Shown here in pieces: positions 10,301-64,000 of a stretch of DNA of 64,000 nucleotides; within the stretch, counting starts at the first letter, position 1, and each line of letters opens with the position of its first letter. Below the pieces are notes generated by a model, which ran no database searches, was not told where the DNA came from, and worked only from the letters and a program-made list of their open reading frames with translations. Origin of the DNA: Ruditapes philippinarum (lineage: Eukaryota). The stretch spans positions 1-64,000 of the forward strand of contig NW_026862271.1 of NCBI RefSeq assembly GCF_026571515.1. Reading direction: 5' to 3'. The position numbers and the translations under genes are program-made.

Positions 10301-10316
10301 TCCTCAATTGTCATAT

Positions 10317-10904
10317 GAGCCGCGTCATGACAAAACCAACATAATGGGTTTGCGACCAGCATGGATCCAGACCAGCCTGCGCATCCGCGCAGTCTGATCA
10401 GGATCCATGCTGTTCGCTTACATACTCTATAACAATGTTCATGTTTGTGCCATGTTATGTCTCACTCCATTGAATGTACATTATACTAACATATTTGTCT
10501 TATCTTGTCCCTGTGTTGTTGATTTTTTTTCTGATCGCTATCATATTTAAGTGATTGCAAGTTAATAAATTATAATTTCAAATTCAAGTTATCCATGAAT
10601 ATTTAGGATTTATCTATAAAAGATATTAATAAAAGACGTTACACTTTATCGTTTGTTAAATCACAACTATTTTCTTTCACTATATTTTTTGTATTATTTG
10701 ACTCAAATGAAATGAGATATGCAGTTTTTATGTCAAGATTATAAGTCTGATCAGGATCCATGCTGTTCGCTATCAGTTTCTCTACTTGTTATAGGGTTTG
10801 TAAGCGAACAGCATGGATCCTGATCAGACTGCGCGGATGCGCAGGCTGGTCTGGATCCATGCTGGTCGCAAACGCATTACGTTGGTTTTGTCGTGACGCG
10901 GCTC
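10317..10904. mobile_element. Two truncated Sola-type palindromic MITE copies in opposite orientation around ~300 bp of unrelated DNA
   Basis: 10317-10435 and 10744-10904 match the MITE at 14904-15138. Their central spacers are in opposite orientation and the flanks (ATAT vs AATT) do not form a TSD. Confidence 0.7.
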
Positions 10905-10989
10905 AATTTATCACTGAAGTGGGCTGAGGCTAAGCCAAGTTTGACTGATTTTAAAAACAATACATAAAATGATTTGTTCCACACGGTGT

Positions 10990-14285: not shown

Positions 14286-14903
14286 ACACAAAAAGATTGT
14301 GTTACCTTTTAAACTCAGCACATGACATAATTAAACAGAGTTATAATACAGACTGTCATTGTTGGCATTTCTGTAAAGAAAAGACCAAATATATTTAACC
14401 AGCAATAGGGCATCACATGCGACTTCACAGACATAGTTTTGCATTCTTATATTCACATTAGACATATTCAGTAAGTTTTTTTCCTAGATTTTCTATAAAT
14501 TTCTGCTATAAAAATATTATACCCAAATATGAGCACAGTATAAATTTAAAACACTAGCATTAACCGTACTATGTATATGTATATTTGAGCATTATAAAAC
14601 CGAAAGATGACCGCTTCTAATTTCATAATGAAAATTTACTTAAACATGAATGTTACGGGACACAAACATGACTCGATGCCACGGTCATTGAGTTGAAGGA
14701 CACTTTCTTTTGGTAATTACTAATTAACACAGCGTTCAAATTGGTAAGACCTTTTTTCAATGTTTTGCTCTTAGTCACGTTATGTCCACCAAAGTGTAAA
14801 CTTTGAGTGCAAAGGTAAAATTCAAAATGACTTGATTGTGTTCAATTTTATACTACGCATAAATAAACAACAATCCACTTGACCAACGGGCATTTCGATA
14901 AAT

Positions 14904-15138
14904 GAGCCGCGTCACGACAAAACCAACATAATGGGTTTGCGACCAGCATGGATCCAGACCAGCCTGCGCATCCGCGCAGTCTGATCAGAATCCATGATGT
15001 TCGTTTACCAACTCTATTACAAGTAGAGAAACTGATAGCGAACAGCATGGATCCAGATCAGACTACGCGGATGCGCAGGCTGGTCTGGATCCATGCTGGT
15101 CGCAAACCCATTATGTTGGTTTTGTCGTGACACGGCTC
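14904..15138. mobile_element. Complete palindromic MITE, Sola-type
   Basis: GAGCCG...CGGCTC termini, ~100-bp TIRs and 4-bp TSD AAAT on both sides. Confidence 0.85.
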
Positions 15139-16707
15139 AAATATTGTTAAGAATGTACGAAATCCTCATGGTGCTGATGTATTGTCTAATCAGGTATATC
15201 CGAAAATGTACAGACCTGTCACAAACAATAGAGGTGTGTAAAAAAAATGCTTCACGGGTGGTTTGTTATACTCACATAACCTGCAGTCAAAACTGATAAA
15301 CCTAATGCTTTATTGTTTAATGATTTCCGGCATATTGTAGGATAATTTTTATTACATTTATGACAGAGTGATCATATTTGAATAACAATAACGCACGCGC
15401 AAAAACCTGACAAATACTGTAAATCTTGATTAAACATGGACTTTTTATTGCCTTTTTATTTATTACAAATCTTTATGCAATAAAGATAACAATACTTTTT
15501 AAAGATACGATGTTCTACAAACCAAATTTAGCAAATTTTAAAGAAAAACTACGATTCTCATCATACATAAAAGGTGATATTTGAGTAACGTAGAAAAGAA
15601 AAACATGCACATTTGATGGAAAATTTTATAACTTATGCACTAATTGTACAAATTATAAAATGACGCTAATGTTTTGTTGTTTTTTGTTGTTTATTTTTTT
15701 TTGTCCGCCAGGGTCTATTTTGCCTCCTAATTTCAAGTTCGTCCTATTGCAGATTGCTCGAAATTGTTGCCTTTTTTCACGTGACATTTTAACAGTACTT
15801 GATATTGTGATAGTATTCAGTTCAATTGATTAAATTGTTCGTATATATTCGGTGAATTTCATTAGATTAAATGTACTCTGTCCATAAAGTTCTTAATTTG
15901 ATAATTTCAGACAACATCTCCCAGTTTTTTTTTTAGATGACACTAATTAAGTTGTTGAATTGTTCCGATATTTTCCTCTTAATATTTGCATTAGCTATTC
16001 AGTGCTGGAAACATTTTTTTTTGTAAACTTTCAAAGAATTGTTCCATATTTCTATGTCGGTATCAAAAGACTGTTTCTTCACTGTGTCATTTGTATTAAG
16101 AGCAACTGGACCAAAAGCTTAACCAAGGACAATTGTAACAATGTTGTTTCTCGATGTATTCTTAAATGGCCAAGTTCTTCTCAATCTTAACTCATTAATA
16201 GTTACATGGAGGACTTTGCCTTAGCTATGTTAGCTTTGTATTTGGGAAATGAGATTAAAAGTTTGTAGGAAGCAGGTATTGAAACTAAATTTAAAGAATT
16301 AGTCAATTTTGCAAGGTATTTCAAGAAAAGAATTCACAATAGAGCTTCATTATGGCTTGATGTATGAAGTTTGAATTACTCGTCAAATGGAGTCTTAACT
16401 ATAAAACATAAGTAGGAAAAATATGATGAATGTCATTACATCAAAATAAAGCTTAAATTGTATCCAACAAGTGTTGCCCACATGCATATTTAATTGATGA
16501 TAAATAGCGAATACAATGGTTTTTTTTTAATTATTCACTGAAATATACAAGGGTTATCTGCCATAAACAAATACAAACAAAGGGCATAACAAGGAGCGTC
16601 TCAAATGCTTTACTTCCGTTTTAGATAAGATACCACATTGTATTTTATGCGATGTGCACGATTTTGTAAAAATAATAGTTCAATGTTTAGAGCCATGTAA
16701 TATTAAA

Positions 16708-17356: not shown

Positions 17357-19747
17357 TTACAACACTGATTCACTCCTATTGATATCTTTATCGTTTTCCA
17401 ATAAATGAGTACTTGTTTCTGGACATTGTATGTCATCGTTAGTTGTTTGTTCTTTTCTGCAATGTTTGCTTATTGAATACTTGGCCTGAAAATTAAAAAA
17501 GAGCTTATATGAATTTGTGTAAATAATAACTTTTACAGCAGCTGTTAAGTAGTATGCAGTTAGAGTTTGAAGTGGAAGTGAAATAGCAATGACATTTATT
17601 AAATCCGTTATCGATCTGTAGTCAACCTTTCACCCTTTAAAATTACGGTGCACCGATCTTTGTAAAAACGTATTGACCTATGCCAAAATAACATGCACTA
17701 GTTGTAGACTTTAAACTGTACCAAATACTCCGAAAAACGATTTTAGGAGCATCGTAGAACGAAAAGTGTTCTGGGGTGCATGTCCCCGTACCACATCAGT
17801 TGCACGGGTAAAAAATCGTGACTGTGGCCTGAATTTTAATAATTAGTAGAAACGATGACAAACGTCTCAAGTATTTCAAGCAGCAAAAGTGATCTTTGCG
17901 CGGTCTCGTTGCAATGAATTAATATAGGTTTAGATTACCGGAGACAGTATTGAACAATTAGAGTACAAACAGAAGTAGCGATAGCGATAGCACTGACATA
18001 AGCAATGAAAGTGACAAGAGTGTTGATGAACCATAAGCAATTGCAATGACAGTGACAAAAAACATCCGGATAATCAGCAGCGATGATGATTTGCAGATAT
18101 AATAGAAAGTAAAAATGTCCGCAATATATTTGTGAAAGCAAAAGTTGAAGCACTATCATAGGTGGCACTAGTTGTTGTAGCGACAGAGATATCAGGGACG
18201 ATACTACCGATAGTACAAGTAGCGAACATTACAATTACAATGGTTATATCAGAAGCAAGACAGTGATTGTCAGTGACTGCACCAACAACAGAAGCAAAAG
18301 CGATGGTAGCAATAATATCATTGGCAGAAACGGTAGTTGAAGAGGTTGTACTGAAACTACCAACAACAATACATGTAGAATTGGTTAAACATATTTATCT
18401 TTTAAAATACATATACATGCTAGTGATTTAATTATATAGAAAGCATTTCAAAAATCCTTACAAAAAAGGATAAGATTGGAAGATAAAGTCTTACAAAATT
18501 CTTTTCCTGAATTGATAGTTGACATATAATGTAAAAGATGCTTAATTCTTAACAAAGAAAACTGAGGCTTATATCTAAAAAGAGAAAACAGATGTGTATT
18601 ATTTGACTGCCTAAAATAGATATGGTTTGACGCAATCAGTAGCGATTGCAATTATTTCAACTAATAAATATAACTATTTTACGAAACGTAAGTAATGGTG
18701 GGGAGCAATGGAAGGGAAAGAATAACACATTCAAGTAAAGAATTACCCTTCTCTTCCTAAATTTTCTATAAGCGCTGAAAATGAAATATGTAAAACGATT
18801 TCATAATTATACCTAAATTAGATCATTTTGATTTTTATACAAATATGTAGAAACAAAATTTAGTGTTACCATTCGCAATATTGTAATTGGTGATACTCTG
18901 ATTTTTACTAATCCATTTGTTATAATTTTGTGATAAATTATTTGGTTTTCAAGAAAAAAACAATATTATTTCTCTACTCAACCACTAACTAAATTGCATT
19001 TTCTATGGAGATGTGACGGAAAAGCATCTTTAAATTGCAACTGAATACATCCTTACACGCCGCAGTTGTGGTGTGATCAAATAATGAAAATTATAACAGT
19101 AGCGCTTCGACAGTCCATAAGTATGCTTATAACAGTTATTCATTAAAATTTAAAAAGTTTGTTTTTTTTTAATTTTGAACATACATGTACTATAATGGAA
19201 GTCTGGATGATTGTCAACAGAGAAAAAAAGTGAGCTGTTTTGACGTCTAGCTCATTAAGAGACGTTGAGTTGGTGTTCAACTAAAAATAATTACATTCCA
19301 TGTAAGCATGTACACAATCACGTTATTATTGCTCATTATTGAACAAAATTTTATAAAAATGTTATATAATTATATAGAAAACACGTTTACTTACATATAT
19401 GATAATATCCAGATACCAATTATAATAACTACAACAATTATTACTACTAAGGTTGTTATTGTGGTGCTTGTCTGATTGGTTGTCGGTGTGGTTGTACTTC
19501 TTGTCGTGCAGGGAGTCTGTATGATTGGACAGTCTGTTTCAAAAAGTATACTATTTGTATAACATCTTCTGGCGATTATACAAACATCTTTTAACAACAA
19601 ACTGTTGTTAAGAGCATGATCTCGGAATTCCAAGTATGGTATCATCGGGGGAGGGCACGGTGCAGAGCGAGTAGCATCCTCAATACTTCTCCCTTTCATC
19701 GAACACAAACCGGTGTAAAAAGAAGTGAACATGAGTTTATAATCCAT
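17357..19747 (-). CDS. Paralog P2 of APCPP family, ~169 aa; exons 19747-19395, 18774-18747, 17485-17357
   Basis: ORF 19391..19747 (MDY..APCPPP..RDHAL..CIIARRC..TM) ends at AT|GTAAGT (phase 2). A 28-nt micro-exon TTTCAG|C GCT TAT AGA AAA TTT AGG AAG AGA AGG|GTAATT encodes AYRKFRKRR. The terminal exon TTTCAG|GCC.. encodes AKYSISK...RSESVL*. Confidence 0.78.
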
Positions 19748-21539: not shown

Positions 21540-23252
21540 TTACAATTTTGTAATTGTTATGCCTTGAGTTTCATTATTTACATATATAACGCTTGATTGC
21601 TTTAGTACAGTTTCTTTTGACAAATTTTGATCACATTTGTGTCCATGTTCATCATATATAGTACGTTGTGGTTCCGTAACCGGAGTAGCAGAAATAATTC
21701 TTATTTGTTTTGTCTTCCTTAATTTCAAGTAGATTATCATTCCTCTGAAATTTAGAAGGTAAATGTCAAACTCGTCAATTAATATATTTACAATGACAAA
21801 CATTAGCCAAAACAAAATCAGAAATATGAAGACAAAGATCCAACAGTGGAGAGTGATACTAACGTAACGCATCCCCCGGCAACGTAAGAAGTAGGAACCA
21901 TGATCACATTAAAATGTAGTTTTTCTGTGTGCTTCTGTAAGTAATGTTGTCAAAATTATATACGAATTTACGAGTACATGAGTTATAGAATAATGAGTTA
22001 TATCAAATAGTGGGTTATCACATTTTCAAAAATGCATTTTTATTTATTTATTTATTTGCTTCATGGCTGATTACAAGATTTATAAACGAACATGATATAT
22101 AAAGAGCTTATAATGAGGTCTTATAAGAGGTACAAAATCTTTAAAGCCATATCGACATTAAATGTTTTAACACCTGTAAAACATATCCAAATAACACATT
22201 TTGTTTCAACATCTTAACAAAAGATACTCGCACGAGGTAAAAGCACTTTTACTTACATATTTTTTCTGGAGTTTTGTCATAGCATTAAATGATTAAATCA
22301 ATGAAATACTGCAAGATATGTTTTAAAAATGAAACTGTCAAGTTTGGGTTTTTCATATTAGTGTTGACGCCTTTCGTTTTCTTTCATACATTTATTTTAA
22401 GAAAAAACTAATAATGTCAGTTTAACTTAACAAATTATTATCTTGAAAATTATCTAGAGAATTAATAACATTTTAAAAGCTGTGTACAACGTTGTAAAAT
22501 TTTTGGTTGCACGATTGGCAAAAATGCGAGAAATTCAACAAGAACATTAATTTTCGAAATTCCTTTAGATTAACTAAATATCTAGTGTAAATGTTTCAGA
22601 AAGATCTTTTAGATTATTTTACTTATTTTATGAAATTCCCTCTTTAAGATTGTAATTTTAAAATGACAAATACAAATTCTGCTAATATTCAGTTATTCCC
22701 TGTAAATTTCAAAGGAGGTCAAACCGTCTTCGTCCGAAAAAAGTAATAAAACTGGAGGATATTACTTCAAGAGAAACATTTGAAACGTGAATATTTGTAT
22801 GATTTTTGTCGTAAGTTATTACCAAACCATACTCACACGATGATGACAGCAATAGCAGACAAAAGTACGATTAGTATAACTATACCAATATCTTCGGAAT
22901 TAGCTTGTGAAATCGGTAAGTAATCACTGGATAACACTGTGCTTAGAGATGTACGAACTGTAGACGATGTCTGATACGTCGATGAAATCGTACTTGCAGA
23001 TGAGTTACCAGTAACAATGCTAGATAAATCATCTGTTGTCACAGTTGTTGATGTTAACGAGCAGTCAATATTAGAACCAGTTAAACCACATCTTGTTGCT
23101 AAGTTACAAACTTCATGCATACACAAACTTTGATTTAGTGCATGATCTCGGAATTCATTATAATTAAACCATTGTGGAGGACAAGGTGCAAAATTCAGAA
23201 AATCTATGTTTGTGACATTAGACGTCAGTTTACATAGACCAAAATAATCCAT
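21540..23252 (-). CDS. Paralog P3 of APCPP family, ~206 aa; exons 23252-22837, 21744-21540
   Basis: ORF 22833..23252 ends at GT|GTGAGT (phase 2). Acceptor TTTCAG|A GGA ATG continues in frame as GMIIYLKLRKTK...GITITKL*. Confidence 0.82.
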
Positions 23253-26232: not shown

Positions 26233-27212
26233 TTACGCAGTTGTTGTTTTAATATTTTGTAGGTTTTGTTCTAAATTTCCTTCACTAGAATTTTCTGAAA
26301 CAGGTTCTTTAATCGTTGAATAGCACTGCAATTCAAGGTCTTCTTTTGTTGTTCTAGGTGTTTCTTTTACAGTGTGTTGAGAATTTGTTGTATTAGCCCT
26401 TTTCTTTCTTTCCTTGTAGAGTGATATTCCTCTGAAATATAACGAATAACACATGGGTTTAACTGAAGAAGAAATGTTTTTTTTTATTATTTTGTTATAC
26501 TATGTTTTGGCTGCAATATCTAAGCAAATGTTATAGAATATTAAGTTTTTAAAGATATACTCTGCCCATCTTTGAGTAAAATATTCTTACGGAATATGTC
26601 GATAAATAAAAGAATGAATAAGCGGGGTTTTCTATTACAGGTCAGGTAAAGTTAATCTTCACTTAATGACACTATATATGCATATTGTGACCATCTATAG
26701 TGTGTAGAATTTTAAACATAACATATCCATTGTGTGTGAAGTCAAAAAATGTTACTTTATATTAAAAAGAAACAGTGTATCAACGGGAACATCTTTCTAA
26801 ATAATACATTTAGGTTTCCTTGAACGTGCCTAATAAGTGTATTATCAAATTATACTCACATGATTGTCATGATTGTCATGATAATGGCTGCAAGAATAGT
26901 CCAAACCACACTGAGTATGATTTTAATGTCATCGTCATTATTAACGTCGTCAAATGGTTGGTTATTACCAGTAACAACGCTGGATAAATCAGTTGCTGTC
27001 GCAGTCGTTGATGTTAACGAGCAGTCAATCTCAGAACCAGTTAGACCACATCGTTTTGCTAAGTTACAAACTTCATGCATACAAAAACTTTGATTTAATG
27101 CATGGTCTCGGAATTCTCTATAATTAAGCCACGACGGAGGACAAGGTGCGGAATTAAGAAAATCCGTGTATGTGATATTAGACGTCAGTTTACATAGACC
27201 AAAATATTCCAT
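26233..27212 (-). CDS. Paralog P4 of APCPP family, ~183 aa; exons 27212-26860, 26431-26233
   Basis: ORF 26856..27212 ends at AT|GTGAGT (phase 2). Acceptor TTTCAG|A GGA ATA continues as GISLYKERKKR...IKTTTA*. The ectodomain is 59/70 identical to P3 by manual alignment. Confidence 0.82.
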
Positions 27213-28303: not shown

Positions 28304-30469
28304 CACGCCCGTTTAACTCACAACGGAGTGAAAAATGTCCATCGGTAAAAATGTTGTGAGCAACTTCCGTTCCTTCGTTGTGAGCACCCATCTATAAACG
28401 AGTGACACGATAAACAAGGTGGACTTTTTTCATAATATTTGGAAGATTATAGACATTTTATGTAAAAATATCGGAATGCAGTTAGCTAGCGATGTGTTGT
28501 TTCCGAGTATGCACATGTAAAAAGATCATTGCCTGTTGTGGACATTGGATGGAAATACGTCGCGTGCGACGCAGTGACTCGGGGGTAGGCTGGAAAACTG
28601 GAGACAACTTCTCTTTGGACCTAATTTAACATTGAAAACGTCGATTCTGGTGACGTTTTTGTGCATTTTCTAACATAAAACAGATGCCCCACAAGTCTTT
28701 AGCGTAAATATTAATTCTGAAAGTTCTTCGTAGAAACGAAGATATTACTTTTTTTGCTTTTAATCCTCGTTTTGAGCACCATAACCTCGTTGTGAGCAAG
28801 GACCAAGCGCAAGTGCTTGTCTGGTTTTAATATGTAATTCAAATGGCAAGCATTACAATTTTCAATCTACCAAAAGCAAAATCAAAAAAAAAAAAAACGT
28901 TTTTTTGTACAATTATAGTTTTCTTTGCAATAGTTCTTCTTTTTTTTTTTTTTTTGAAAAATTATTCTTCATATTCACAAGTCATCAGATTAACAGAAAG
29001 AACTAATCAGTGGAGGTAAAATAGGTATTTTATTTTCGTATACTCTAGTGTGGCACGAGTGAACATCACAGGGTGTTTATGAAATATTTCAACAATTTCA
29101 CAATCTGTGTTACACACATACATGTGTTTATCCTGAACTGAAGACTGACCAAGTTATGTAAAACAAGAACTATCACGGTAAGTTGACAATGCCCCTGAAG
29201 GTGGGCTTTGTCTTTGATTTATGGACCCAGTAAAGATTATTTCCTTCTATTACAAGTTTGTAAGGTCTTTGTCCAAAGGGGCATTGAGTGTCCCAAATAT
29301 GAAATTAATTCCACTTACCCTTACCTAAAGAAGTTGTGACCAAATGTTAAAGTTTTTGGATGTTCTAGAAGGTCATTCACGGTTACAAGGTAAAAAACAA
29401 TACAGATCAGTTTTAAGGTCTTGCCTCAAAAGGGTGTTGTTTTTCAAAATAGTAGGGAGTCCGTTATACTAATAAAGGAAGTTTAATGAACAAAGTTTTA
29501 AAAGTTTTTTGGAACGATTTGAACCTTCAAAAGTGAAAGGTAATTCAGGGGTCGAAGGTCAAAATATATATAGGATAGTTGAAAGGCCCTTGTCCAAAGA
29601 TGGTGTTGTGTCTAAACATTATGCCAGGACATTATGGCCAATCTTAAAATGTTTGTTTTGGACAATTTGGACCTTGAAAGGTAAAGGCCATTCAGGGGTC
29701 AAAGGGTAAAAAAAACAGGTCCGTAGGAAAGGTGCTAAGGGATGTTGTGTCAAAATATGAATCAAATCCGTTTACTTAAGTTATTTGCCAATGTTAAAGT
29801 TTTCGGACAGATTGAGGGACTGGACAGACGGACAGTTCAAAACTAATATGCCTCCCTTTGGGGTATGCACAAGGTCTTGCAAAGAAATGCTGCTGTGCAA
29901 AAACGTTTTAATTGCTGTGGGTAGATTGAAAATTATATTTTTCACCATCTAGATTACATTATTAAAACCATATACGCACTGCGCTTGTCTTGCTCACAGC
30001 GAGGTTATAGTGCTCACAACGAGGATTTAAAGCAAAAAAAGGTAATCTTGTTTCTATGAAGACTTTCAGATAATAATTTACGCTGAAGACTTTGTGGGTA
30101 TCTGTTTTAGGTTAGAATGCACAAAACGTCACCAGAATCGACGTTTTCAATGTTAAAAATTAGGTCCCCAAGAGAAGTTTGTCTCCAGTTTTCCAGCTAA
30201 CCCCGAGTCACTGCGTCGCACGGCATTTTCCATCAAATTGTCCACCAACAGGCAATATCTTTACATGTGCATACTCGGAAAACACATCGCTAGCTAACTG
30301 CATTTCGATATTTTTTACATAAATGTCTGCAATCTTCAAAAATTATGAAACACTCACCTTGTTTATCGTGTCACACGTCAAAGATGGGTGCTCACAACGA
30401 GGAACGGAAGTTGCTCACAACATTTTTACCGATGGACATTTTTCACTCGTTGTGAGTTAAACGGGCGTG
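28304..30469. mobile_element. Foldback-like non-autonomous DNA transposon with ~510-bp TIRs
   Basis: 28304-~28816 is the reverse complement of ~29976-30469. Ends are CACGCCCG..CGGGCGTG, flanked by TA on both sides. TTGTGAGCA is repeated in the arms. Confidence 0.9.
29162..29865 (-). mobile_element. HINE nested in the foldback element
   Basis: AACAAGA + hairpin at one end, internal ~170-bp degenerate repeats, and a GGACAGACGGAC microsatellite at the other end. Confidence 0.6.
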
Positions 30470-30864: not shown

Positions 30865-33089
30865 TTATAATTTTGCAACAATACAAGTATCATTCTTTTC
30901 TCCATTTGAACGACTTCGCAAACCGCTTTTAATTACTGGTGAATCGGTTGGGTCATTATCTTTAAAACTTGTAAAATTTCCATCATTTTCTTTAGTTGAC
31001 TGTGAATGTTCAATAACGTCTGGACTACTTTTAACTTTTTCATTTGTAGTAACATTTTCATAGTGACAGTCAGCGTGAACTTCAAGAATGTTAGATGATC
31101 CTCGGTCACTAGATTTCCCGCTAGTTTCACTGTCTGTATCGTTAAATACGACATTGATCGCATCTTGTTTAATATCACCACTCCTTCTTTTGTATACTAC
31201 AATTATCAATCTGAAAATTAACAAGTTAAATTGAATTCATATGTTACTAGATTTTTCGATATAATATACATTCTAAAACGACAATCAACATACAAAAGAT
31301 TACAAATAAAGTCACATGCTTAAATTCCTTTGGAATTCAACACCAACAGTATTACCGAAAAACAAGGAGTATACAATTGGAAGGGGGTCGAATTAATCAA
31401 CATATACGTATGTTAGTAACATTTATAGAATGGAATACTTTTATTTCCAGTCAAAGGTTTTGTAAAATGACATATAAATCACAATAATAATGAGATCAAC
31501 GATCAATTAAAAATGTAAACGAAAATAAAGCTTGATTCGTATTAGAAAGTAACAATAGAGAGAAAATAACTGATAAACAAACTAAAGTTTACAAACTTAA
31601 CTACTAAACACCATATTTAAAATGTAATGATACTTTAAAACACAATAACTGTATATAGTATCTTATTGTAGGTTTTCTTTTAAATTACATTCCATGAAGC
31701 ATTTTACAAAAATAAATTTGCTGATCTGAGACATTTTTTCAAAGTTCAAATTCCTATCTTTTATTTCACTATATGAAATGCTGCGTTGACTAGTAAAAGC
31801 ATTACAAGCAGTTACAAAGTGAAGCTCGTCTTCAACTTCTTTTCAGTTGCACTCCTCACAGAATCTTCTATCAGACTTGATTGTTTTATATCCACCAATC
31901 TCTATTTGCAATGTGTGTTAGAACTTATCCTTATCTTTGTAAAACAAGTTATAATATCTTTATCTTTGATTCTGCTAAATAAGGTTGCCTACAAAAATCT
32001 GTACATAAGTACGTAGTTTTCAATCATTATCTTTACCATTTTTCAATTTATCAATAAATTGTATTGAACAATAAGATATTGATTCTTTATATAAATTTTC
32101 AGATATTTTTAAATATTTTAGTATAAAGAATACACTGAATAACCAACTATTTCTTTTACAATTGTAAAACATTTCGCAATCAACATGAGCATTGTTTTAA
32201 AAAGTTCACTAACTGTAGATTTAGTTAATCTTGTATAATACTTAATTAAACCGATTATGCAATCAAAATATAAATGAAACCTCCCCAATTCACCGGAAAC
32301 AGCATCATTGCATGTTTTTTGTGAATCCCTAACACACGTTTAAGGAATTGTTTATGTAATTTTTTCACATGGCATATCATTAAATCATTTAATGCAATTA
32401 ATGCATTGTCATTTTGTTTGTAAATATTGAAGAAGAAATAGATACTGTTTAAACCAAAGCATTGAAATAGACAAAATCGCCCTTTCACTCTACCGGTTGC
32501 TGTATTCAGAGTATTCGTTCATGTGTACAGTTAGCTCATTTTGCAGAAATAATGCTTTGAGACTATGCAACCGCCACGAGAATTGTTTATTAACTAACAG
32601 GTCGTTTGCATTGATGATTATGCAAAATGTTTGAAAAATATTTATGATTTACATGAATTTATATGAATGTGCATGAATTTGCAAGTAAATCTTTACATTG
32701 CTTTATAAAAGAATAAATAAAGAAGAAATATAAATGTTAATGTTCGTTCTTTGACATTCAAAGAGTTGTTATAACACGACAAAATATACATGTACTTACA
32801 TGCTAATAAGAAGAGCAACGCTTAACACAGATGCAATGATGATTATACAAAATAAATTACATCCTACTTCGGCTTGGGTATCGTGTACAGGGCAGTCCGT
32901 AGTCAGTTCTGAACTTTCTGACATGTTGCATCTTCTAGCAATACTGCAGACCTCCCTCTTGCACAGCTTTCCTATGGCTGTCATTTTCAGTTGAATATAG
33001 GACAAAAACGGTGGAGGACAAGGAGCACACTGCAACATGTCTTCAATCTCGCCGCCAGTGGTACAAGAACACGAGTGTACATAATCCAT
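30865..33089 (-). CDS. Paralog P5 of APCPP family, ~211 aa; exons 33089-32800, 31210-30865
   Basis: ORF 32796..33122 contains MDYVHSC..APCPPP..CSIARRC..TM and ends at AT|GTAAGT (phase 2). Acceptor TTTTCAG|A TTG continues as LIIVVYKRR...HYENV...IVAKL*. Confidence 0.8.
31790..32400 (-). pseudogene. LINE ORF2 3' fragment (Cys/His knuckle region) in the P5 intron
   Basis: Motifs KKLHKQFLKRVLG, KIRISS, QIEIGGY, RRFCEEC and EVEDELHFVTAC. Confidence 0.7.
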
Positions 33090-36000
33090 AGCAAATATCG
33101 TTACACTATAGGTACCATACACAAATGTTGTAAGAAGATATGGCTTTCACTAGTACTGCAGGAGTGGTGCCATTTTTGTTGATCTCAATTATATGGTCGA
33201 TGGTTCTGTATAATTAAAGATAAATCGAGTAGTATTACTCTTTTTTTATTTTATAGGTTCTTGAGTAGATATACATGTAGTTAAATATCATCAACGTAGG
33301 TATATTGCATATGTTTACATTGGGATAAATATTTTAAATGGTTTCAGATTTGCAGAGAAACTTATTTTTGGGATAATAACCAGGACTAACAATACAATAC
33401 AAAAAAAACGTTACCGGGTCGAATAAAATGAAGATATTCAGTTCTTCTAAAAAAATCATAAAAATGCTACTTCAAGTTCACTTTATTCATTACCACATTA
33501 GATATTAAATCTATGAAAATAAAAAATGTATTTTTTTTTAGATTTGTATTTTGATCTTGATCTTAATCCTTAGGGAACACGAGGTTTGGTTATCTATAAC
33601 GTTTCAACAAGGAAGGAAATATGTGGAAATGTATAAGGAAACAGTTAAATGTTTTCATACTGCTTAAAATGTTACATACATTATGTAAATCTTTATCAAA
33701 CTATAACATAAACAGCATTCAAGTTTTATTTGTTAAAGTCAAGATCTAGAGATAAAGAATACTTTTTATATGTTATCTTTAAACTAAACAGTATTGTAAA
33801 TGCAAATGTTCAAACCAATCAAGATAACATGACCACCATCGCGATAAACTGTACTTTATGAATAATTGGCAAGACAGAAAAGAACATAATTATACAATGT
33901 GCCAATATATTACATTGGAGCGTGATACAAATCATTGAACTTGACTAACAGACACTAGTTAATAAAACAAACAAATGTATGATACAATGTTAATAATTTA
34001 TAATGGTTTATAATCACTGTCCCCATGTACTGAAAATAACGTTTAAAGTAGAATTTGTATTAAGTATCATGTAACCCACTCTTTAATTATTTTATGTTAA
34101 CCAGTCATATTGTTACTATTGCGACGTTGCTTCTAATAAAAGTGATTGTTGAAAACAAAATAAATAAAAAATAAATAAATACAATGTTGATACCTCGGCA
34201 AAATTGTATAAATAGAACGAAATATAAAGCTACATTCAGCAAGCAAATATCTTACCATCAATTACGATGAGAATAAACTAATATATTCCTGGGTGTGGCT
34301 GCGAAATTATTATATTGTCAATTATAACCATGGTAACATTTTACACAATATTACTGAGATTTTCTTTGTATCCTGGTTTGAACATTGCAGACACACTAAA
34401 AATAAAGCGTTAATTAGTTATAATTCATGCGACAATTATTATAAATTTTTTATGATTTTTGATATTCAAAAATTTTTATATTTAAAGTTATTTTTTTTCA
34501 TACTAAACTGTTGTGTGCTCATAACTCTGAAAAAAAAATTTCTCAATGAACCCCTTTAACTATCTTCAAAAAAAATTTAAAAAATTAATCCCCCTTCTTT
34601 TTTTTAAACCCAAGGCAAAATCTGTACCAAAATTCCCGTTTTAAAATAACAAACCATCTTCCCCCATTTTATATTTTTTCACTCAATAACACCTGAACAT
34701 TATTACGCAGTTTCCTCTGAGAATCGATCGCATCAGCCCATCTGTTGCTAAATAAGGAAAACTACACCTGGCGTTAAAGAACGCTTATTTGTCAATATTA
34801 ATTACGTCAGAATAGCACGCAGTACATTATTTTATACACAAACTTTGAGAGTATTGTTTGACACTAAACAATGAAAATGAAAGGTTGTTGATAACGCCTG
34901 CTGCGTTCTATGAACGTCGCTAGTGCCTGTTGACATGTGTACTCACATTTTACCTAATTAACAATCATCAGCATAAATAGAGAAAATGGTTTGAGAGCTC
35001 AAATTATGATTCGGAAAGCTTGCATTTATCATTACTCTCAATCACACCTTTATCATTACTCTCAATCACACCGAACCTACAACATTTTAAGTTTTGACGT
35101 ATTGTGCCTTCTGTAAAGTTTCCATAGATCATTCTACCGAAATTGTTTTGCTTATTAATTAGTCCCTGCTTAATATATTCTAGAACAGATTAGAGCAGCA
35201 CAAACCATCATCATTAATAAATCATTTTGTTCTAATTGTGTAATTTATACATCCGTTTCTAATCTATAAAATTAAAAATATATACAATCCGATCTCTTAC
35301 CAAATTCTGTTCTACAAAATCAAAAGGAAGAAAAACAACATGTCAACGCCTGTTTGATTTATGGAATTTATTTTCTACCGGTTTCGGTTCTGCAGTTGAG
35401 CCGTCATCAGAATAAATATGATAATAAACCATAATCAAAGTAATCTTCTATCATTAAATTGGAATCATATTTCGTTTAAAGTGAAAACAGAAAATTACGC
35501 GTGTACGAAGCATTTCAAATAAATTGCTATTGTTCGGACATAATACATGTTAGTCAGGAAATTATTTGAGATAACACGTCGTACATGTGTGTCGTAGTCA
35601 ATGATATTTTGCAAAAATAGAGGGTCTAATTCAATGCCCTTTTCTTTCGTTTTGTGTAAAACCAGTTCTGTTCAGTTTTTATTTGTTTGGGTCGTAGCGA
35701 ATTTTCATACCCTGATATGCTTATTTGCAAAATCCGAAAGTAGTCCATCACGAATTCCTCGATGCGGTTACTTCCCTTTATAAGTACACTAACGCTGAAA
35801 AATTAAGGAGAGATCACTGCGTAAAGATTGGCAAATGGCAGGCGCATTAATTTTCTAACCTCTGAGGGAATAAAAAGGTAGTTCCCGATTGATTGATTGA
35901 TTGATTGATTGATTTCTAATATTATGTAATTCTTTAATATTTCCGCAAAGTACCGGTAATAGATTCAAATAATTTTGTTACGCGGATGATAAATGAAAAT

Positions 36001-41700: not shown

Positions 41701-44700
41701 GATGGTTGGGTGAGTGCTACTATTAGCGAAGTACCTAGTGAGCATTTGATTGTACCAGTATATAACTCAGTCAAAATCTTTAACATACAAATTGGTAAAA
41801 ATAAGTAGTGACCTATATGATCAATCATATTAAGATCATATTCTTGTAATAATACAACAATAACATTTTATCAACACTCACAGGTAAAAAAAAATAATCA
41901 GGTGTAAAGTAACTGTTATGAATCTTGGAAGCTATTCACCCATTATTTTCTTCTTTGTGTGTTGTAATGTAAGTTGAAATTTAAAACTTTGGAAATATAT
42001 TATAATTAAATTTGCTTAATTTATATGTAACTAATTATGATTCATTTATTGTCTTAACACAACATATGCACTTGACACTGGTAATGGTCAAAACAATGGT
42101 AAACATACATGTATGATAATCCGACTCTTTTATATTTATAAATTTCTTTATTTCTTATTGAATATTGAGAAATTACAGTGTGTTTTATCACAGTATCATA
42201 ATGGCATATCCAAATGCTTTTGTATAAAACATAGATATTTTCTATTCTTGTAAAACAAATGAAATTTTACACCATGCAGCCTTGTTTGAGATTTTTATGT
42301 TTATTCATTGACAGGTATACTGGTTACAGCTTCAAAGTCAAAGAACAATACATACAGTTACAATACCGTGACAGTGGTACTGTTGACAGAATGTATTAAA
42401 TTGGTTGCAGCTATTTTGATTTATCTGAAAGAGTAAGTACAATTTTAGACTAATATTTCATTCATACATGTATTATTTTAAAACAAAAAATATAAAATCA
42501 TGTACTAATGAAATGTTTCTGGCTTTTATACCAATTTTTACCCACTTTTTGATCATCTTGATAGACAGTCCAGCTAACCAGATTTCCTTGATAACTAACC
42601 AGTAATTGCCAATTTCTCTGCTAGTGACTTCAGATATGAAGTTATGCAAGTGAGTTATACTTTAATGTTTCAGCCTCAGGCTTTTCTGTTGGCTGTGTAG
42701 GCTATCCATGATCAAAAATAGTTAAATGGATACAGTTGACTGGAATTGATATCATCATTTATAGCGCCTTACATAACCTGATGTTCCACGCTTACATTAA
42801 CGTCACTTCCGACTTTACATTGTTTCTGTTGTTTACTCTATATATGATTGTTGATCAGTAAAGGTTGAATCTGGAAACTGCAACGCATTTTGTTTAGTTA
42901 TTATACACCCCCACAACAGTCATACCATTGTACTTATACTAAGTATATTCTAAGTATATTCTTTTAACATTTTAGGAAATCCCCATCATCGTTTGTTAGT
43001 GACTTTGTCAATAATAAAGAAAGTAAGTATTTGCTATTTCATGCTTTGATAAAGAGATAAAGAACTTGTAAAGTTAATGTATATTTTTTGTCCTGTTAAT
43101 AGTATTACTGCCCTCAGGTACTTAATTATCAATTATTTTAATAAATCTTTGAATTGAAAATACTTTTCTGGTAAGATAATTGTGTCAAATTATCAATTAT
43201 AAATATAATTTGATCGTCATGTCTGTAAACAAAATTTATATTTATTTAATAGAGGATATTGAATGATGGTAGGTTTAATACATAATTTATTGGACAAGTT
43301 GAATAAAATCATATTATGTGAGTCTCTTTGAGCATAATATTGTTTTATTCAACAAGTTCAATAAATTTGGTATTGAATCTACACAAATATAATATTCTAA
43401 TAATCACATATATAAATTAAGAAGGGTAAATAGGGTGTTAAAAAAGGTCCTTTTTTATGCCCCCCTCCCCCTGAAGGGCGGCATATTCAACTCGCACCGT
43501 CTGTCTGTCTGTCTATGCATCCCCACTTCATTAGTGTCCGGTCTGTAACTTTGTCATACATTGAGAGATTTTGAAATAGCTTGGTGCAAATGTCTACTAC
43601 ATCAAGACGATGTGTCTGTCGCGTCTAAGGATTCGACCCTACCTCAAAGGTCTAGGTCACACTAACATTTTGAAGTTTCACTTTATCACAATAAGAGTTT
43701 ATAGGTACACACATTTGTGTCCGGACTGTAATTTTGTTGTGCATCGAAGGATTTAAAATATCAAGGCTTAAATGTTTACATCGTCCAAGACTCATGTCCC
43801 TACCTTCAAGGTCAAGGTCACACTTACAGTTTAAAGGTACTCATTCTTTCGAGAAGAGTTTGAAGATACACAATCAAGTCTGGACTATAACTTTGTCATT
43901 CATGGAAGGATTTAAAAATAACTTGGCACCAAAGTCTACCACATCAAGATGATGTGTCTCAGCTAATGCTCATGTCTGTCTGTCCATCCATCCATGTATC
44001 CCCACTTACACAACAATCATGTCCTGACTGTAACTTTGTAATGCATTGAGGGATTTTGAAATAACTTGGCACAAATGTCTATCACATGACAACATTGTGT
44101 CGCGTCCAAGAACCACGTCCCTTCTTCATAGGTCAAGGTACACTTACTTTTGAAGGTTCATGCTATCACAATTAGAGATAATAGGTACACACATTCGTGT
44201 CCGGACTGTAACTTTGTCATGCATCGAAGGATTTTAAAATAACAAGGCATAAATGTCTACCACATCAAGATGACGAGTGTATGTAAGACCCATGTTCTAC
44301 CTCCAAGGTCAAGGTCACTTTAATAGTTTGAAGGTACTGATACTCATCAGAAAAGTTGAAGGTACACATTAGTTTCCAAACTGTAACATTGTCATGGATT
44401 AAAGGATTTTAAAATAACTTGGCATAAATGTCTACCACATGAAGATGATGTGTCACATCCAAGACCCTTGTCCCAAGGTGTTAAGTTTGCTATAAATAGC
44501 ACTTCATTTCACAACAATTAGTTACTTTCATTCTCATTTCTTTTCATAATACCTGCATGCTTAAAAAACCTTTTCGGAGGCATTCGTCATTGTGTGACAG
44601 CTCTTTTTATTGAATGTCTTTATTACACTCCTGTGCTTCAGTTTATATGATTGAAACTGATCAAAATATTTTCAACTGAAGAAATGCATACACCCAGATC

Positions 44701-47700
44701 AGTCTTTAATATTCAACACCTTTTATTACTTGATTTGTGAGATCACAAATATTTACTGACGCATTATTATGAATATACCTTAAAATAATTCTGGAAATAA
44801 TCGGATAGCCAATTGATAAAACTGTTTACACAGGAAAGGTCTATTTGCATCCATCTTGTAATAAGCTGTTATTGCACTAATGATTTTTATGTTATAGAAA
44901 TACATGTAATTGTATATTTCAGCATTACTGTACTATTTTGTACCAGCTGGTCTGTACTGTCTATATAACAACCTTCAGTTTGAGAATCTAGCTAACTATG
45001 ACCCAACCACATACTACCTTCTTCTACAGTTCAGGGTGGTTGTTACTGGAGTTGTCTTTCAGGTAAGTCAATTTATTTACTTGTTGTTTTTTTGTCAGGA
45101 ACAATTTCAGGAGTATGGAGTATTATAATCTGTAAACTTTTCTATTTTTGCAGACTCTTTTGCAAAATACTTTAATCAAACTTTATCAAATGGTGCATGT
45201 AAAAACAGTTTGATTGTGTCTATATTATATTTTTGGTGTGAATATGTTTACCTGTTTAAAAATCCTTATTAGTCCCCTACCGGTTTAACCGGAGGGGACT
45301 TTAGATTTACCCTCCGTCTGTCTGTCAGTCCGTCAGTCCGTCCGTCCACAAAACTGGATCCCGCGATAACGCAAAAAGTACTGAAAATATTTTTATGAAA
45401 CTTGATATATGGATAGATGGCAGTATGGAGATTATGCACGTCTTTTTTTTTCTTCCTATGTTGAAAATTCTGGTTGCTATGGCAACAAATAGTCTGAAAA
45501 TATGGCAAATTTAACACATAAACTGGATCCAGTGATAACTCAAAAAGTACTGAAAATATTTCTATGAAACTTGAAATATGGGTAGATGGCAGTCTGGAGA
45601 TTATGCACATCTTTTTCTTTTCTTCTTATGTTGAAAATTCTGGTTGCTATGGCAACAAATAGCCTGAATTTCAAGATTTCTGATTTAAATTTTTCAGCTT
45701 TTTCACTATATGTTCTTTATTTCTTAAGGTGTTTACTTCAAACTTTAAATATAAGTTTCTGGTCATCAACCACATCATATGTGACAAGGTTTATAACTCT
45801 AGCACAAAAAATATCAGTATTACCTCCCTTGAACTTAGATTTTTAGGGGAAAAAATGTTGTCTTTTTTAAATAACTTCTTTATTTCCTAATGTATCTACT
45901 TCAAACTTCATATATATGTTTCTTATTAACACTCAACATTTTTGAGAAGGTTAAATACTCTAGCAAGACTATTTCCAGAATTATGTCCCCCTTGAACTTA
46001 GATTTTTTTCGAGAAACTGGTATTTTCACTCCAACTTCTTCATTCCTTATAGGATTTACTTTAAAATCCCACATCGTAATAATATGACAAGGTTGTATAA
46101 ACATAATTTCCTTACTAAGCATGGAAACTTAACACATTACTGTGATATAGACAAACTTATTTTATTATGTTTTGTGGTCGATATTTTCAAATACAGACTT
46201 CATCCTCAAATTCATTATAAATGGCAATACACAGGAGTGTATGACAATTAAAGAACTTTTTGAGGGACCGGTAGGGGACTACTGTATTGCCCGCAATACT
46301 ATCAAATGCTTGTTAAGTAAGTTTTGTACATGTGATTATGGACAACATTATTCAATTTTTCTTATTCTTGTTTTTTTCGTAACAAAATATATCAGTCCCT
46401 CATGAAAAAAACTTAGATTGTAGTACACATAGATCAAAGCTTTAATTTTCCAAAATCGTGGCCAAGTGGTTAAGGCTGTTCACTTCAAACCACTTGCATC
46501 TGCCCACTGTGGTTTTGAATTCTCGATAGGTACTTTGGATTCTTTGATGTGAGGAAACTATCCAACTAAAATGGGGAATGTCAGTGATTCTACTCACTGT
46601 ACCCGTTCCTGCCTGAACTAATGCACGGAAGGGCACTTGAGGTATTCCACCACCAGTAATGCTGGAAATTCGCTATTTGACCTATACTTTGTTGGTGAGA
46701 CATAAAACCTAACCATCCAACATGGTAAGGCTTCATGTTAATTCATGTTATATAAGAAAGTTTCAATCTGTGTTATTTTTGGAGATTTGCTAAGATGGAA
46801 TGTTTGATATGATTATAACACATATATGTGAGAAAGTTGAAATGATGATCTTTTTAATTTTTCTTTTTTTTTTCCAGATTGTATTTCAGAAACAGTTAAG
46901 TCGTATACAGTGGGTATCTCTAGTATTTCTCACATTTGGCTGTATAGTAAAGGAGTATGGTAGACTAACTGGTAGTGGTACAGCTGCTGATGCAACTAAA
47001 GAAACTTCATTCCTTAATCTACATCTATTCTTAATCCTTGTTCAGGTAAATTTTATAAATTTTTCAGCAAATGTAGAAATGGGTTTTCATAACTGTTTTT
47101 TTTTCCCCAAAAGAAAAAGCAAAAAAAAGAATAAAATTCATCCTTATTATGTCTCTTGCCTATGAGGACATCAAGACAACCAAACAGTGTAATAAAAAGT
47201 GTATTAATGTACTAATTTGATTACGAATTTTCATATCATGAAAGTCTGGCTCAGTTTCATTTCTAGCGCCTTCTTGAAATTTCATATAAATTATATAACA
47301 GGGTACATACAGTCTTAAAAAGGTCTTAAATGTCAGCCCCTTTCTTAAAAGTGCTTAAAAATGAAAAATAATATCCTTCAATTTGCTTTATTTCTAAAAA
47401 AGTGCTTGAAAAGTACTTAGTTAATATCTGAAAAGGTGCTTGTAAATGAAAAGGATGACATATTCTTGGTTAGAAAAGATATAGTTTCAACAAACAATCT
47501 CATTTAGTATTAAAGTTAAAAAATAAAATAAATGTTTGCTCACAATTATTGGTTACAGCTAGTGTGTGTATGACAGTACCATTATAAGTTACTTGATCAT
47601 TGATATTTGTTTGACACAAAAGCTTGAAAAATCATAAAAAAAAGAGTTTAAAAATGCTTGAATTTTGGCATTGAATGTCTGTATGAACCCTGTTTAAACT

Positions 47701-48296
47701 TTATGCTATAGAGCCACTGTTACATAATTTTACATTACATGCTAGTTTTCAGTGACTTTTGAGAGGCATTTGTTGTAATTTAATTGTTTGGTAATCATTT
47801 CATTTTTGTATTTCAGGTGTTCTGTTCATGTTTTGCTGGTGTGTACAATGAATATTTACTGAAGGGACGTGGTGTAGACATTCATATCATGATGCAGAAT
47901 GTATTTATGTACTTGGACTCGATCGTCTGCAACGGGCTTATTCTTGCATACAAAGGACAGCTTACCGACGCATTCACTGCATCAAGCCTTAGTTCAATTT
48001 TCCAAATTAATGTTATATGTATAATGCTGAACAACGCAGCTATTGGTATTGTCGTGAGTCTATTTTTACGATCTCTCAACTCCATTCTCAAGACATTTGC
48101 TAGTGCTTTAGAACTGATGTTTACAGCAGTATTGTGTTGGTTCCTATTTGGTATAACTATAGATGTTTATACAATCATTGCTATTGTTATTGTGTCGGCA
48201 GCCACCTTCCTGTATGCTCACAACCCTGTGGTAAATGTACCAAAAGATGAAACTCAAGACAAAGAGAAGGCAAATGGGAAATCTGAAACAGTTTAG
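38767..48296 (+). CDS. senju: SLC35A-family nucleotide-sugar transporter, UDP-galactose transporter senju-like, 345 aa; exons 38767-38851, 42315-42432, 42976-43022, 44923-45062, 46878-47045, 47817-48296
   Basis: Six GT-AG exons splice to a 1038-nt open frame. Motifs LFPTK..LFINQGILVTAS..YNTVTVVLLTECIKL, VPAGLYCLYNNLQF, FAGVYNEYLLK and LNSILKTFASALE are typical of SLC35A/senju. Confidence 0.92.
39460..40016. mobile_element. Mutator/MuDR-type MITE in senju intron 1
   Basis: 9-bp TSD CCGCGTCCT (39451-39459, 40017-40025) and inverted arrays of AACTCGGC / GCCGAGTT. Confidence 0.85.
43452..44605 (+). mobile_element. HINE with internal tandem repeats, inserted in a palindromic repeat (~43250-43400)
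   Basis: TTTTATGCCCCC..GGGCGGCATA start, (CTGT)n tract, repeated units, and a 3' GGCATTCGTCA..TGACAGCTCTT hairpin. Confidence 0.75.
45266..46313 (+). mobile_element. HINE
   Basis: TTATTAGTCCCCTACCGG..GGGGACT start, (GTCC/GTCT)n tract, ~170-bp duplicated unit, and a subterminal inverted CCGGTAGGGGACTA near the 3' end. Confidence 0.75.
46455..46712 (+). mobile_element. tRNA-derived SINE with Meta-type core
   Basis: A-box GTGGCCAAGTGG and core ATGTGAGGAAACTATCCA...ATGCACGGAAGGGCAC..GCTGGAAA. A second partial copy lies at ~58410-58580. Confidence 0.65.
47299..47692. mobile_element. hAT-like MITE
   Basis: TIRs CAGGGTACATACAG / CTGTATGAACCCTG. No clear TSD. Confidence 0.5.
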
Positions 48297-48498: not shown

Positions 48499-50758
48499 CA
48501 GTCAAACGTGTATTAAGCGACCGGGTAAGGGAAGCACCCAAAACGGTCGCTTAATGAAACGGTCTCTTAAGACAGCATGATATAAAAGTCAAAATTTATA
48601 AATGACATCTTTTTAGCTCACCTGTCACAAAGTGACAGGGTGAGCTTTTGTGATCGCTTTTCGTCCGTCGTCCGTCCGTCCGTAAACTTTTACTTTAAAT
48701 GACATCTCCTCATAAATCACTTGGCCAATTTCATCCAAACTTCACAGGAATGTTCCTTTGGTGGTCACCTTTAAAAATTGTTCAAAGAATTTAATTCCAT
48801 GCAGAACTCTGGTTGCCATGGCAACCGAAAGAAAAAACTTTAAATATCTTCTTTTAAAAAACCCTAAGAGCTAGAGCTTAGATATTTGGCATGAAACATC
48901 TTCTAGTTAGTGTCTACCAAGTTTGTTCAAATAAAAGCCCTGGGGTCAAAATTGGCCCCGCCCCAGGGGGTCATTGATTTTCCCTATATGCATATAGTAT
49001 AAACTTAAAAAATCTTCTTTTAAAAAACCCTAAGAGCTAGAGCTAAGATATTTAGCATGAAACATCTTCTAATGAGTGTCTACCAAGTTTGTTCAAATAA
49101 AAGCCCTGGGGTCAAAATTGGCCCCGCCCCAGGGGGTCATAGATTTACCCTATATGCATATAGTAAAAACTTAAAAAATCTTCTTTTAAAGAACTCAAAG
49201 AGCTAGAGCTAAGATATTGAGCATGAAACATCTTCTAATGGGTGTCTACCAAGTTTGTTCAAATAAAAGCCCTGGGGTCAAAATTGGCCCCGCCCCGGGG
49301 GTCATTGATTTTCCTTATATGTGTATAGCAAAAACTTAAAAACTCTTCTTTGAAAAAACCCAAATAGCTAGAGTTAAGATATTAAGCATCAAACATCTTC
49401 TAGTGAGTGTCTACAAAGTTTGTTCAAATAAAAGCCCTGGGGTCAAAATTGGCCCCGCCCCGGGGGTCATTGATTTTCCTTATATGTGTATAGCAAAAAC
49501 TTAAAAACTCTTCTTTGAAAAAACCCAAAAAGCTAGAGTTAAGATATTAAGCATCAAACATCTTCTAGTGAGTGTCTACAAAGTTTGTTCAAATAAAAGC
49601 CCTGGGGTCAAAATTGGCCCCGCCCCGGGGGTCATTGATTTTCCTTATATGTGTATAGCAAAAACTTAAAACTCTTCTGTGAAAAAACCCAAATAGCTAG
49701 AGTTTAGATATTAAGCATGAAATATCTTCTAGTAAGTGTCTACAAAGCTTGTTCAAATAAAAGCCCCTGGGGTCAAAACTGGCCCCGCCCCAGGGGTGTC
49801 GTTGTTTTTTAACTATATGTGTATAGTAAAAACTTAAAAAATCTTCTTTTGAAAAAACCCAATGAGGTAGAGCTTAGATGTTTAGCATGAAACATCATCT
49901 TATGGGTGTCTACCAAGTTTGTTCAAATAAAAGCCCTTGGGTTAGAATTGGCCCTGCCGTGGGGGGGGGGAGAGGCCTATATACAGGTGAGCGACCTCAG
50001 GGCCATCATGGCCCTCTTGTTTATTCGGTGGGATTGTTTTTCAACTTCAAATTTATATAAATGTTGAAAAAAAGTACGCTCCGATAATCTAAATGGATGC
50101 AAATGTAAAAAATAACTTTCTGGTATTTATTGACAAAACAGTTTCAAGATCCATTACGTACATGTTTGACATTTTTCCAGAATTTTTTAACTTCTCCGTT
50201 GTTTTTCCTTATCTCCAACGCGAAAATCCTATTAGTGAAGATTGTTTTCTGTTGTGCTTTTTTTTCATTTCAAATAAACAAACTACATCTATTTGTTACG
50301 ATAAATTTAATGGCTGATCAAGTTCAAGGTCAATTCAATGCAGTCTAAATGTCAACAAGCGAAGCGCATACACCATCGCAGTATGGGCGGAGCGTTGCAT
50401 TGTTTATCCGATATTATTGGATAATAGACGTCACGCGTATACTTAACTTCATTTGCATACGCTGAAACAGTATGGGAAATAGAGTTTTTCACACGTTTAT
50501 TGTTGTGTTTTGATTGTTGACACTTGTGACATAACGAGGTGGCGTTCTCTAAAAACACAATTACTTGACAGGTAAAAGTGGTCGTTTAATGAAAAGATTG
50601 ATGTCAATTAGGTGACTAATTAGCGGTCGCTGGTCGCGTTGAGCAAAAGTCGCTTAATACATTAAAGATATAGAGAGAAAATGATCGGGGGGAATTTAAA
50701 GTGGTTGTTTAAGACAAAAGTCGCTTAATACACGTGGTTGCATGGGCAAGTTAGACTG
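48499..50758. mobile_element. pogo/Tigger-like MITE interrupted by a HINE
   Basis: CAGTCAAAC...GTTAGACTG|TA ends and repeated TTAAGCGAC/GTCGCTTAA motifs. Confidence 0.6.
48610..50021 (+). mobile_element. HINE/pearl-like element with 7 x ~165-bp tandem array
   Basis: TTTTAGCTCACCTG..GGTGAGC start, (CGTC)n tract, units marked by TTCAAATAAAAGCCC at ~165-bp spacing, and 3' CAGGTGAGCGACCTCAGGGCCATCATGGCCCTCTTGTT. Confidence 0.9.
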
Positions 50759-63859: not shown

Positions 63860-64000
63860 CTAAAAGCATGTTTAAAGAACTATTATCATAGCTATTTCAA
63901 AATATGTTTATTTAGCATTAACAATTAACGGAAATACAATGGTGTAAGCAGTTACATTCATAAAATAATGTAGATTTATCACATGTATTAGTTATGTCAA

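Follow-up and report, generated by a model that had tools for sequence, protein, structure and literature searches.

Among the closest described systems, BAFFR, BCMA, and TACI are type III single-pass proteins, with one cysteine-rich domain (CRD) in each of BAFFR and BCMA according to the accessible part of PMC13586541, and the partial text of bioRxiv 10.1101/2024.07.27.603686 gives CxxCxxC or CxxCxxxC as the signature of single-CRD tumor necrosis factor (TNF) receptors. In Grindelwald, the C2 helix-loop-helix module has the pattern Cx3C-x11-Cx3C and the tail is bound by Veli/Lin7 (excerpt of PMC8024323), while Pex14 combines a lumen-facing three-helix N-terminus with one transmembrane (TM) segment (excerpt of PMC12925559). 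The locus compared with them here lies in a 64,000-nucleotide stretch of Ruditapes philippinarum (contig NW_026862271.1, positions 1 to 64,000; hereafter the window), where five minus-strand paralogs, P1 to P5, encode a small cysteine head at the N-terminus of a membrane protein. The head is genuine and marks a bivalve domain family not described before, carried on a receptor-like scaffold of a familiar kind. With somewhat more confidence than doubt, we read the proteins as type III surface receptors or adaptors that are non-catalytic, bear this head at the N-terminus, and would have a tail anchored by PDZ scaffolds. To our knowledge, few type III proteins carry a small disulfide head that is entirely helical.

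The window has an AT-rich, eukaryotic base composition (GC about 0.29-0.38), and its six-frame translation contains five minus-strand frames with APCPP and C-x5-C, starting from ATGs at 2943, 19747, 23252, 27212, and 33089. The original prediction concerned 19520-19747 on the minus strand, which is the first 76 codons of P2, and described a cysteine signature common to five paralogs. This signature stands: the expression APCPP-x20-23-C-x5-C matched five times in the window versus zero times in each of 30 shuffles, and a head profile recovered exactly five copies (E 1.6e-31 to 5.8e-28), with no sixth copy in the window (next best profile match, E 0.045). The proposed spacings were also borne out in all five paralogs, namely C1-x13/14-AP-C2, C2-C3 spacers of 24, 24, 24, 24, and 23 residues, C3-x5-C4, and C4-C5 spacers of 10, 10, 8, 8, and 11 where x8/11 had been given, as were the differing positions of a sixth cysteine and the N-glycosylation sequons in P1 to P4. 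Two details needed correction: the tyrosine placed at x3 past C2-PP is actually 4 residues after C2-PP, and P5 has eight cysteines, including an extra C9/C21 pair that had been overlooked.

Beyond the window, two homolog searches gave 13 matches among 1,778 candidates and three among 56, and HMMER over 1.84 billion representatives gave 46 matches at E≤0.001, and the head is present in 45 of these; the abalone "zonadhesin-like" protein P0053 (E 5.6e-4) was rejected as a summed-repeat artefact, with a best domain of 5.7 bits. A word-limited search with a 28-sequence profile picked out 23 of 7,157 candidates at E≤1. Eleven of these were additional to the earlier matches: three come from Mya, three from Saccostrea (E 0.015-0.21), and five are scallop-like (E 2e-4 to 7e-3). 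While the scallop and oyster matches are weak by E-value, they have the full pattern, the whole architecture, and a C2-C4 distance of 30-32. All named true matches are bivalve (Ruditapes, Mercenaria, Mactra, Mya, Mizuhopecten, Ylistrum, Pecten, Argopecten, and Saccostrea), and no named relatives were found outside bivalves; because many matches are unnamed and the last search was word-limited, the taxonomic range may be wider. The family genes are already annotated as open reading frames (ORFs), but without a name or Pfam domain, and uncharacterised RefSeq/GenBank members include LOC132718484, LOC132718501, LOC128547830, LOC128210463, LOC110450680, and LOC133203223. A literature search reaching few subscription journals found no papers naming any of 12 family identifiers, and one of similarly limited coverage found none on bivalve type III or orphan single-pass membrane proteins. 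A metagenome scan returned two loci with a 17-residue match each, of which L001 was a chance CPPPMIPY word rather than a homolog. The JGI sequence P0007, which at 89% identity looks like an allele of P1, is titled "cobalamin biosynthesis Mg chelatase CobN". This title seems to misannotate clam DNA that was present in a metagenome.

For the family tree (56 rows, 71 columns, bootstrap not settled), P5 grouped with Mercenaria LOC128547832 (99/99), P3 with P4 (98/88), and scallops with oysters (98/94), and forks deeper than these pairs were weakly settled. The grouping of P5 with the Mercenaria protein indicates that at least its lineage predates the Ruditapes-Mercenaria split, and P3 and P4 are evidently a recent duplication. 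Tandem expansion is visible in both genera, with five genes in the window and seven Mercenaria proteins apparently on one 121-Mb contig.

Signature counts were made over 57 proteins, excluding the near-duplicates P0006-P0008, P0010, P0019, and P0033, the false P0053, and the cluster members P0054-P0058 and P0070-P0088. The conserved core reads D-[LF]-L-x-x-A-P-C-P-P-P ... F-x3-A-x4-L-[ST]-x2-E-[VI]-x2-I-A-x-R-C. Both P-C-P (C2) and C4 occur in 57/57, a constancy partly favoured by the manner in which matches were found, and the next proline occurs in 56/57, isoleucine at C4-4 in 53/57, leucine at C4-12 in 50/57, and leucine at C2-5 in 47/57. The five cysteines described as invariant are so within the window cluster, but across the family C3 is present in 30 of the 57 proteins and all five together in 29; HAL, offered as part of the signature, is likewise local to the cluster, with HA[LI] in only 15/57.

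Cysteine gains and losses were compared in the 46-row set. C3 is associated with a cysteine in the C5 range (contingency table 29/1/2/14; Fisher p = 7e-9, which overstates the case because the rows are related), and a cysteine at C2-3 does not significantly track other upstream cysteines (13/1/22/10, p 0.13). Intramolecular disulfides are favoured because the cysteine count is even in 39 of the 46 rows and odd in seven; in three oyster (Saccostrea) heads only C2 and C4 remain. From these patterns we infer a constant C2-C4 disulfide and an optional C3-C5 disulfide, and members with CxC..CAPC would have an extra, optional N-terminal pair. C1 would be bonded to a variable partner, C10 in P1, C80 in P2, C44 in P3/P4, and C43 in P5 (plus C9-C21), and this putative bond set fits a migrating partner better than inter-chain bonds. 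The original prediction had suggested either; a migrating partner for C1 agrees with the even counts, whereas intermolecular disulfides are disfavoured by them. A second small cysteine pair (C-x3-C, e.g., GCNLFC or CGSSC) was observed outside the head, at the outer TM edge, in P5, P0009, P0013, P0015, P0031, and scallop members.

Structure models predict a small bundle of three helices for the head, with helices at residues 31-38, 44-53, and 60-65 in the P5 model and 18-21, 31-40, and 45-54 in that of P3; the core predicted local distance difference test (pLDDT) score is about 80-87, and neither model, each with a low-confidence N-terminus, has a strand of three or more residues. A helical fold had been anticipated from the Y..F..HAL periodicity, and the models do place Y..F..HA on a helix. 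The structure prediction with Foldseek and the profile checks proposed earlier assigned the head to no known domain: Pfam scans of the five window ORFs, 46 members, 28 heads, and 11 distant members found nothing above cut-off for the head, and neither Foldseek nor VIA structural comparison of the heads yielded a known-domain assignment. The ESM Atlas was blank for P3, and its leads for a scallop member were all <0.9. Weak Pfam matches to Baculo_gp64 (E 0.04-0.05), BRCA2_TR2, and UL45 were rejected as below cut-off, and the best matches in PDB sequence searches (E 0.32, 1.5, 0.068, 0.52, and 0.038; gp64, ORF56, PEBP, and FcR-gamma TM) were judged to be chance. Prediction of a P5 head homodimer, run without an alignment, scored 0.00 and is evidence neither way.

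A TM segment was found in every one of the 41 rows that extend far enough; the other five of the 46 cover the head only. Lysine plus arginine is more frequent after the TM than before it in 27 of the 28 proteins whose flank could be read (means 4.9 versus 0.9) and in 11/11 later-found members, and because this positive-inside pattern holds in both sets the C-terminus is expected to be cytosolic. No signal-peptide-like stretch was seen upstream of C2 in 44 of 45 scored members or in 11/11 later-found members, where the best 19-residue hydropathy window is <1.5 (the exception is P0044, at 1.96), and the start methionine lies 10-54 residues before C2. From these sequence features, an N-out (type III) topology is likely. 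A loop sequon occurs in 30/46 members. The tails are acidic and polar, with no Pfam domain in the three window tails scanned or in 11 distant members. A C-terminal [ST]x[LVIF] ends 9 of 25 tails (0.74 expected) and 10 of 36 in the larger set (1.0 expected), T[KRH][LF] ends 5/25 versus 0.03 expected, and three of the five window tails have class I PDZ-type ends (THL, SVL, and TKL). The motif [FYC][DE]NxxY, defined post hoc, occurs in 10/36 tails versus 0.07 expected. Ends of class I type are recognised by PDZ proteins, of which Lin7 is one, and NxxY-type motifs by PTB or FERM proteins. The PxQxT motif is not enriched in the tails, and the TRAF2-type motif is borderline, with 8/25 versus 6.9 expected and 13/36 versus 8.8 (p 0.05).

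If the head does top a type III surface receptor or adaptor, the single-pass protein would insert N-out without a signal peptide, and its three-helix head, stapled by the constant C2-C4 disulfide, would be lifted by an O-glycosylated Ser/Thr stalk that sets its height. The head would be the protein-binding end, contacting an extracellular protein, while the tail may be anchored via PDZ scaffolds, with clustering, and may be sorted (endocytosis) or phosphorylated at its tyrosine motifs. Several observations weigh against this account. The models are moderate, with mean pLDDT of 72 and 66 and residues 1-20 at 48-59. Scallop or oyster proteins account for eight of the ten carriers of the post hoc NxxY motif, which is absent from all five window tails, and neither ITIM (immunoreceptor tyrosine-based inhibitory motif) nor TRAF6 motifs are enriched in tails. 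The head exons are covered by very few raw reads in two RNA-seq runs (X21, about 1-2 per direction; X23, near 0 for most bins), and a YAG lies 2 nt before the P1 ATG, so an upstream coding exon is possible for P1. Since homologs are related, the cysteine and motif counts are not independent. The P3/P4 ratio of nonsynonymous to synonymous substitution rates (dN/dS), from one pair with a 66-codon head, is 0.45 for the head and 0.69 for the stalk, and the head thus gives no hint of the diversifying selection that would be expected in a pathogen receptor.

That same purifying selection between P3 and P4 suits an accessory subunit or trafficking anchor, in which the head would clamp a channel, transporter, or enzyme and the PDZ end would tie it to the cortex. 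The type III single-pass partners PRiMA, MAP17/PDZK1IP1, OSTbeta, and glycophorin C act as accessory or anchor proteins, and the anatomy here is the same as theirs. PDZ-type ends are enriched in the clam family and its relatives, and PRIMA1, MAP17, OSTbeta, and opalin are among the look-alikes seen below threshold in Pfam and the Atlas. However, these Pfam matches are far under cut-off, fall over the TM and juxtamembrane region where they could be located, and disappear when heads are scanned alone, and repeated tandem expansion is more typical of recognition families; we consider this role unlikely, if well worth keeping in mind. The least probable reading takes the cysteines as metal ligands or inter-chain bonds forming covalent dimers. 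It would account for the odd counts in seven rows and for C1 lacking a fixed partner, but not for the even parity of the remaining 39, the gain and loss of C3/C5 as a pair, or the two-cysteine minimum in oysters, and the histidine of HAL is at its column in only 27/57.

A very diverged TNF receptor of the BAFFR/BCMA/TACI/Grindelwald type, binding a bivalve TNF and signaling via TRAFs, would share the type III layout with one cysteine head that the accessible part of PMC13586541 describes for BAFFR and BCMA. By Atlas features, clusters of BAFFR, BCMA, and TACI are among the neighbours of the scallop member (0.83-0.84, a lead only), CxPC occurs in 15/57 heads with DxL just upstream in 31/57, and Grindelwald has a helix-loop-helix module with Veli- and Traf2-binding regions (excerpt of PMC8024323). 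We nevertheless regard such a receptor as improbable, and the family was not filed there because its heads lack the CRD signatures in the available parts of PMC8024323 and bioRxiv 10.1101/2024.07.27.603686: CxxCxxC/CxxCxxxC and Cx3C-x11-Cx3C each occur in 0/57. Nor was a TNF receptor found in Pfam, where 28 heads match only three unrelated families at E≤10 and none is among the best 25 of 88 families matched by 46 members or among the matches of the five window ORFs and 11 distant members; the models, low-confidence at the N-terminus, contain no strand of at least three residues, the TRAF2-type motif is borderline, Pfam scans found no death domain, and oyster members have two cysteines only. 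Slightly less probable again is a Pex14-derived or Pex14-like module, in which the head would be the three-helix bundle of the Pex14 N-terminus, stapled by disulfides and binding a short aromatic helix (WxxxF/Y-like) of a partner. The structural scores are all in the range that the tools call a common arrangement, with VIA identity of 6-16%; no Pex14 sequence appeared at E≤10 in four PDB-sequence profile searches, Pex14_N was unmatched in Pfam scans, and sequons with even cysteine counts point to the secretory pathway. It is equally a long shot that the family is a new surface receptor class, with a stapled, Pex14-N-like peptide-binding bundle shown N-out on a mucin stalk and paralogs reading different short helical peptides on secreted or cell-surface partners.

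Focusing on the individual genes, every paralog has the head, the Ser/Thr stalk, and most of the TM on one minus-strand exon with a phase-2 GT donor (5/5). For P2, coding exon 1 (19395-19747) holds the head (19508-19747; codon starts C1 19705, C2 19657, C3 19582, C4 19564, C5 19531, and an extra cysteine 19510), a Thr-rich stalk, and most of the TM, followed by a 28-nt micro-exon (18747-18774) with the TM end and basic stop-transfer residues and a tail exon (17357-17485) ending in -ESVL. P3 has coding exon 1 at 22837-23252 (head 23252-23061, stalk, TM) and a tail exon at 21540-21744 with IYDE and IYVN, ending in -ITKL. Its recent duplicate P4 has coding exon 1 at 26860-27212 (head 27212-27021) and a tail exon at 26233-26431 ending in -TTTA, while P5 has coding exon 1 at 32800-33089 (eight-cysteine head 33089-32892, short stalk, TM) and a tail exon at 30865-31210 with HYENV, ending in -VAKL. 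In contigs of runs guessed to be RNA, exact CT..AC joints were found for P2 (two, including 18774/19395 in run X2) and P3 (21744/22837), with imprecise joints for P4 (26415/26871, run X2) and P5 (31213/32806, X1 and X2, with contig pieces). This read and contig evidence covers a 19.9-kb stretch; since P1 is outside it, only coding exon 1 of P1 (2462-2943; head 2943-2752, long Ser/Thr stalk, TM) is followed by exons that are solely predicted, a 31-nt AG..GT micro-exon (1779-1809) with basic residues and phases as in P2 and a tail exon (975-1241) ending in -DTHL. The spliced P2 and P5 products are identical to the uncharacterised Ruditapes philippinarum RefSeq proteins XP_060558182.1 (LOC132718501) and XP_060558166.1 (LOC132718484), respectively.

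Upstream of the ATG in P3, P4, and P5 there are in-frame stops, and these fall inside contig pieces of the runs guessed to be RNA. Because the closest acceptor-like sites, 17 nt before the P3 ATG and 18 nt before that of P4, differ in frame, the stretch 5' of both ATGs is likely untranslated region (UTR). The translation starts of P1 and P2 are less sure than those of P3 to P5; RefSeq starts P2 at 19747, while Logan products start at the second methionine (19732). A joint at 19744/19958 (two X21 reads and one X2 contig) skips the first P2 ATG, possibly as an allelic or alternative acceptor, and the P5 5' UTR (33089-33205, minus strand) has a short upstream ORF of seven codons that stops just before the in-frame stop.

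Elsewhere in the window, nucleotide-sugar transporter exons lie at 44910-48296 on the plus strand (Pfam Nuc_sug_transp, E 4.6e-15 for the last exon and 0.002 for the preceding one), and two Cys-rich exons resembling antistasin repeats at 62490-63896 on the minus strand (antistasin PF02822, E 7.5e-4, just under cut-off, for 63687-63896; the other unmatched). Tandem repeat arrays of 163-178 nt, which we take to be Helitron/MITE (miniature inverted-repeat transposable element)-associated satellite DNA, occupy 48692-49965, 53063-54075, and 54729-55651, with related-period arrays at 43518-44472, 45713-46007, and 59303-60111; three of the tandem arrays sit behind a common 143-nt leader. Between P4 and P5, nested inverted repeats around about 1-2 kb at 28326-30448, with high read depth and strand-switch joints, are likely a non-autonomous DNA transposon. 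Several element copies of about 100-165 nt occur in both orientations at 10313-10908 and 14898-15144, the latter a near-perfect hairpin.

What emerges is a domain of extracellular type that has no name yet, shared by clams, scallops, and probably oysters and captured by a profile that can be put to use (PCPP ... L[ST]xxE[VI]xxIAxRC); it brings dozens of "uncharacterised" proteins together as one family with a testable anatomy. If a ligand is found, bivalve immunity, development, or gamete biology would gain a receptor class; failing a ligand or a phenotype, the family stays one among many lineage-specific membrane-protein families. Compared with known systems, the family would resemble Pex14 in its predicted, lumen-facing three-helix N-terminus and one TM (excerpt of PMC12925559), while differing in sequence and profile, where no similarity was found, and in that it is predicted to be cysteine-stapled and glycosylation-prone, Pex14 being peroxisomal with a coiled coil. 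Grindelwald likewise has a small head that is held by disulfide bonds, contains a helix-loop-helix part, and bears an N-glycan site, but it has a beta-hairpin, nested Cx3C-x11-Cx3C, and four disulfides (both from the excerpt of PMC8024323), and no Grindelwald match was listed in the structural comparisons of the heads. With BAFFR, BCMA, and TACI, the family shares the predicted type III single pass, a short cysteine-rich head, and tails in which no folded domain was seen. It differs from these receptors in lacking CxxCxx(x)C, in a two-cysteine minimum and a head predicted to be all-helical, and in its tails, where TRAF motifs are not clearly enriched and PDZ-type ends and NxxY motifs occur instead.
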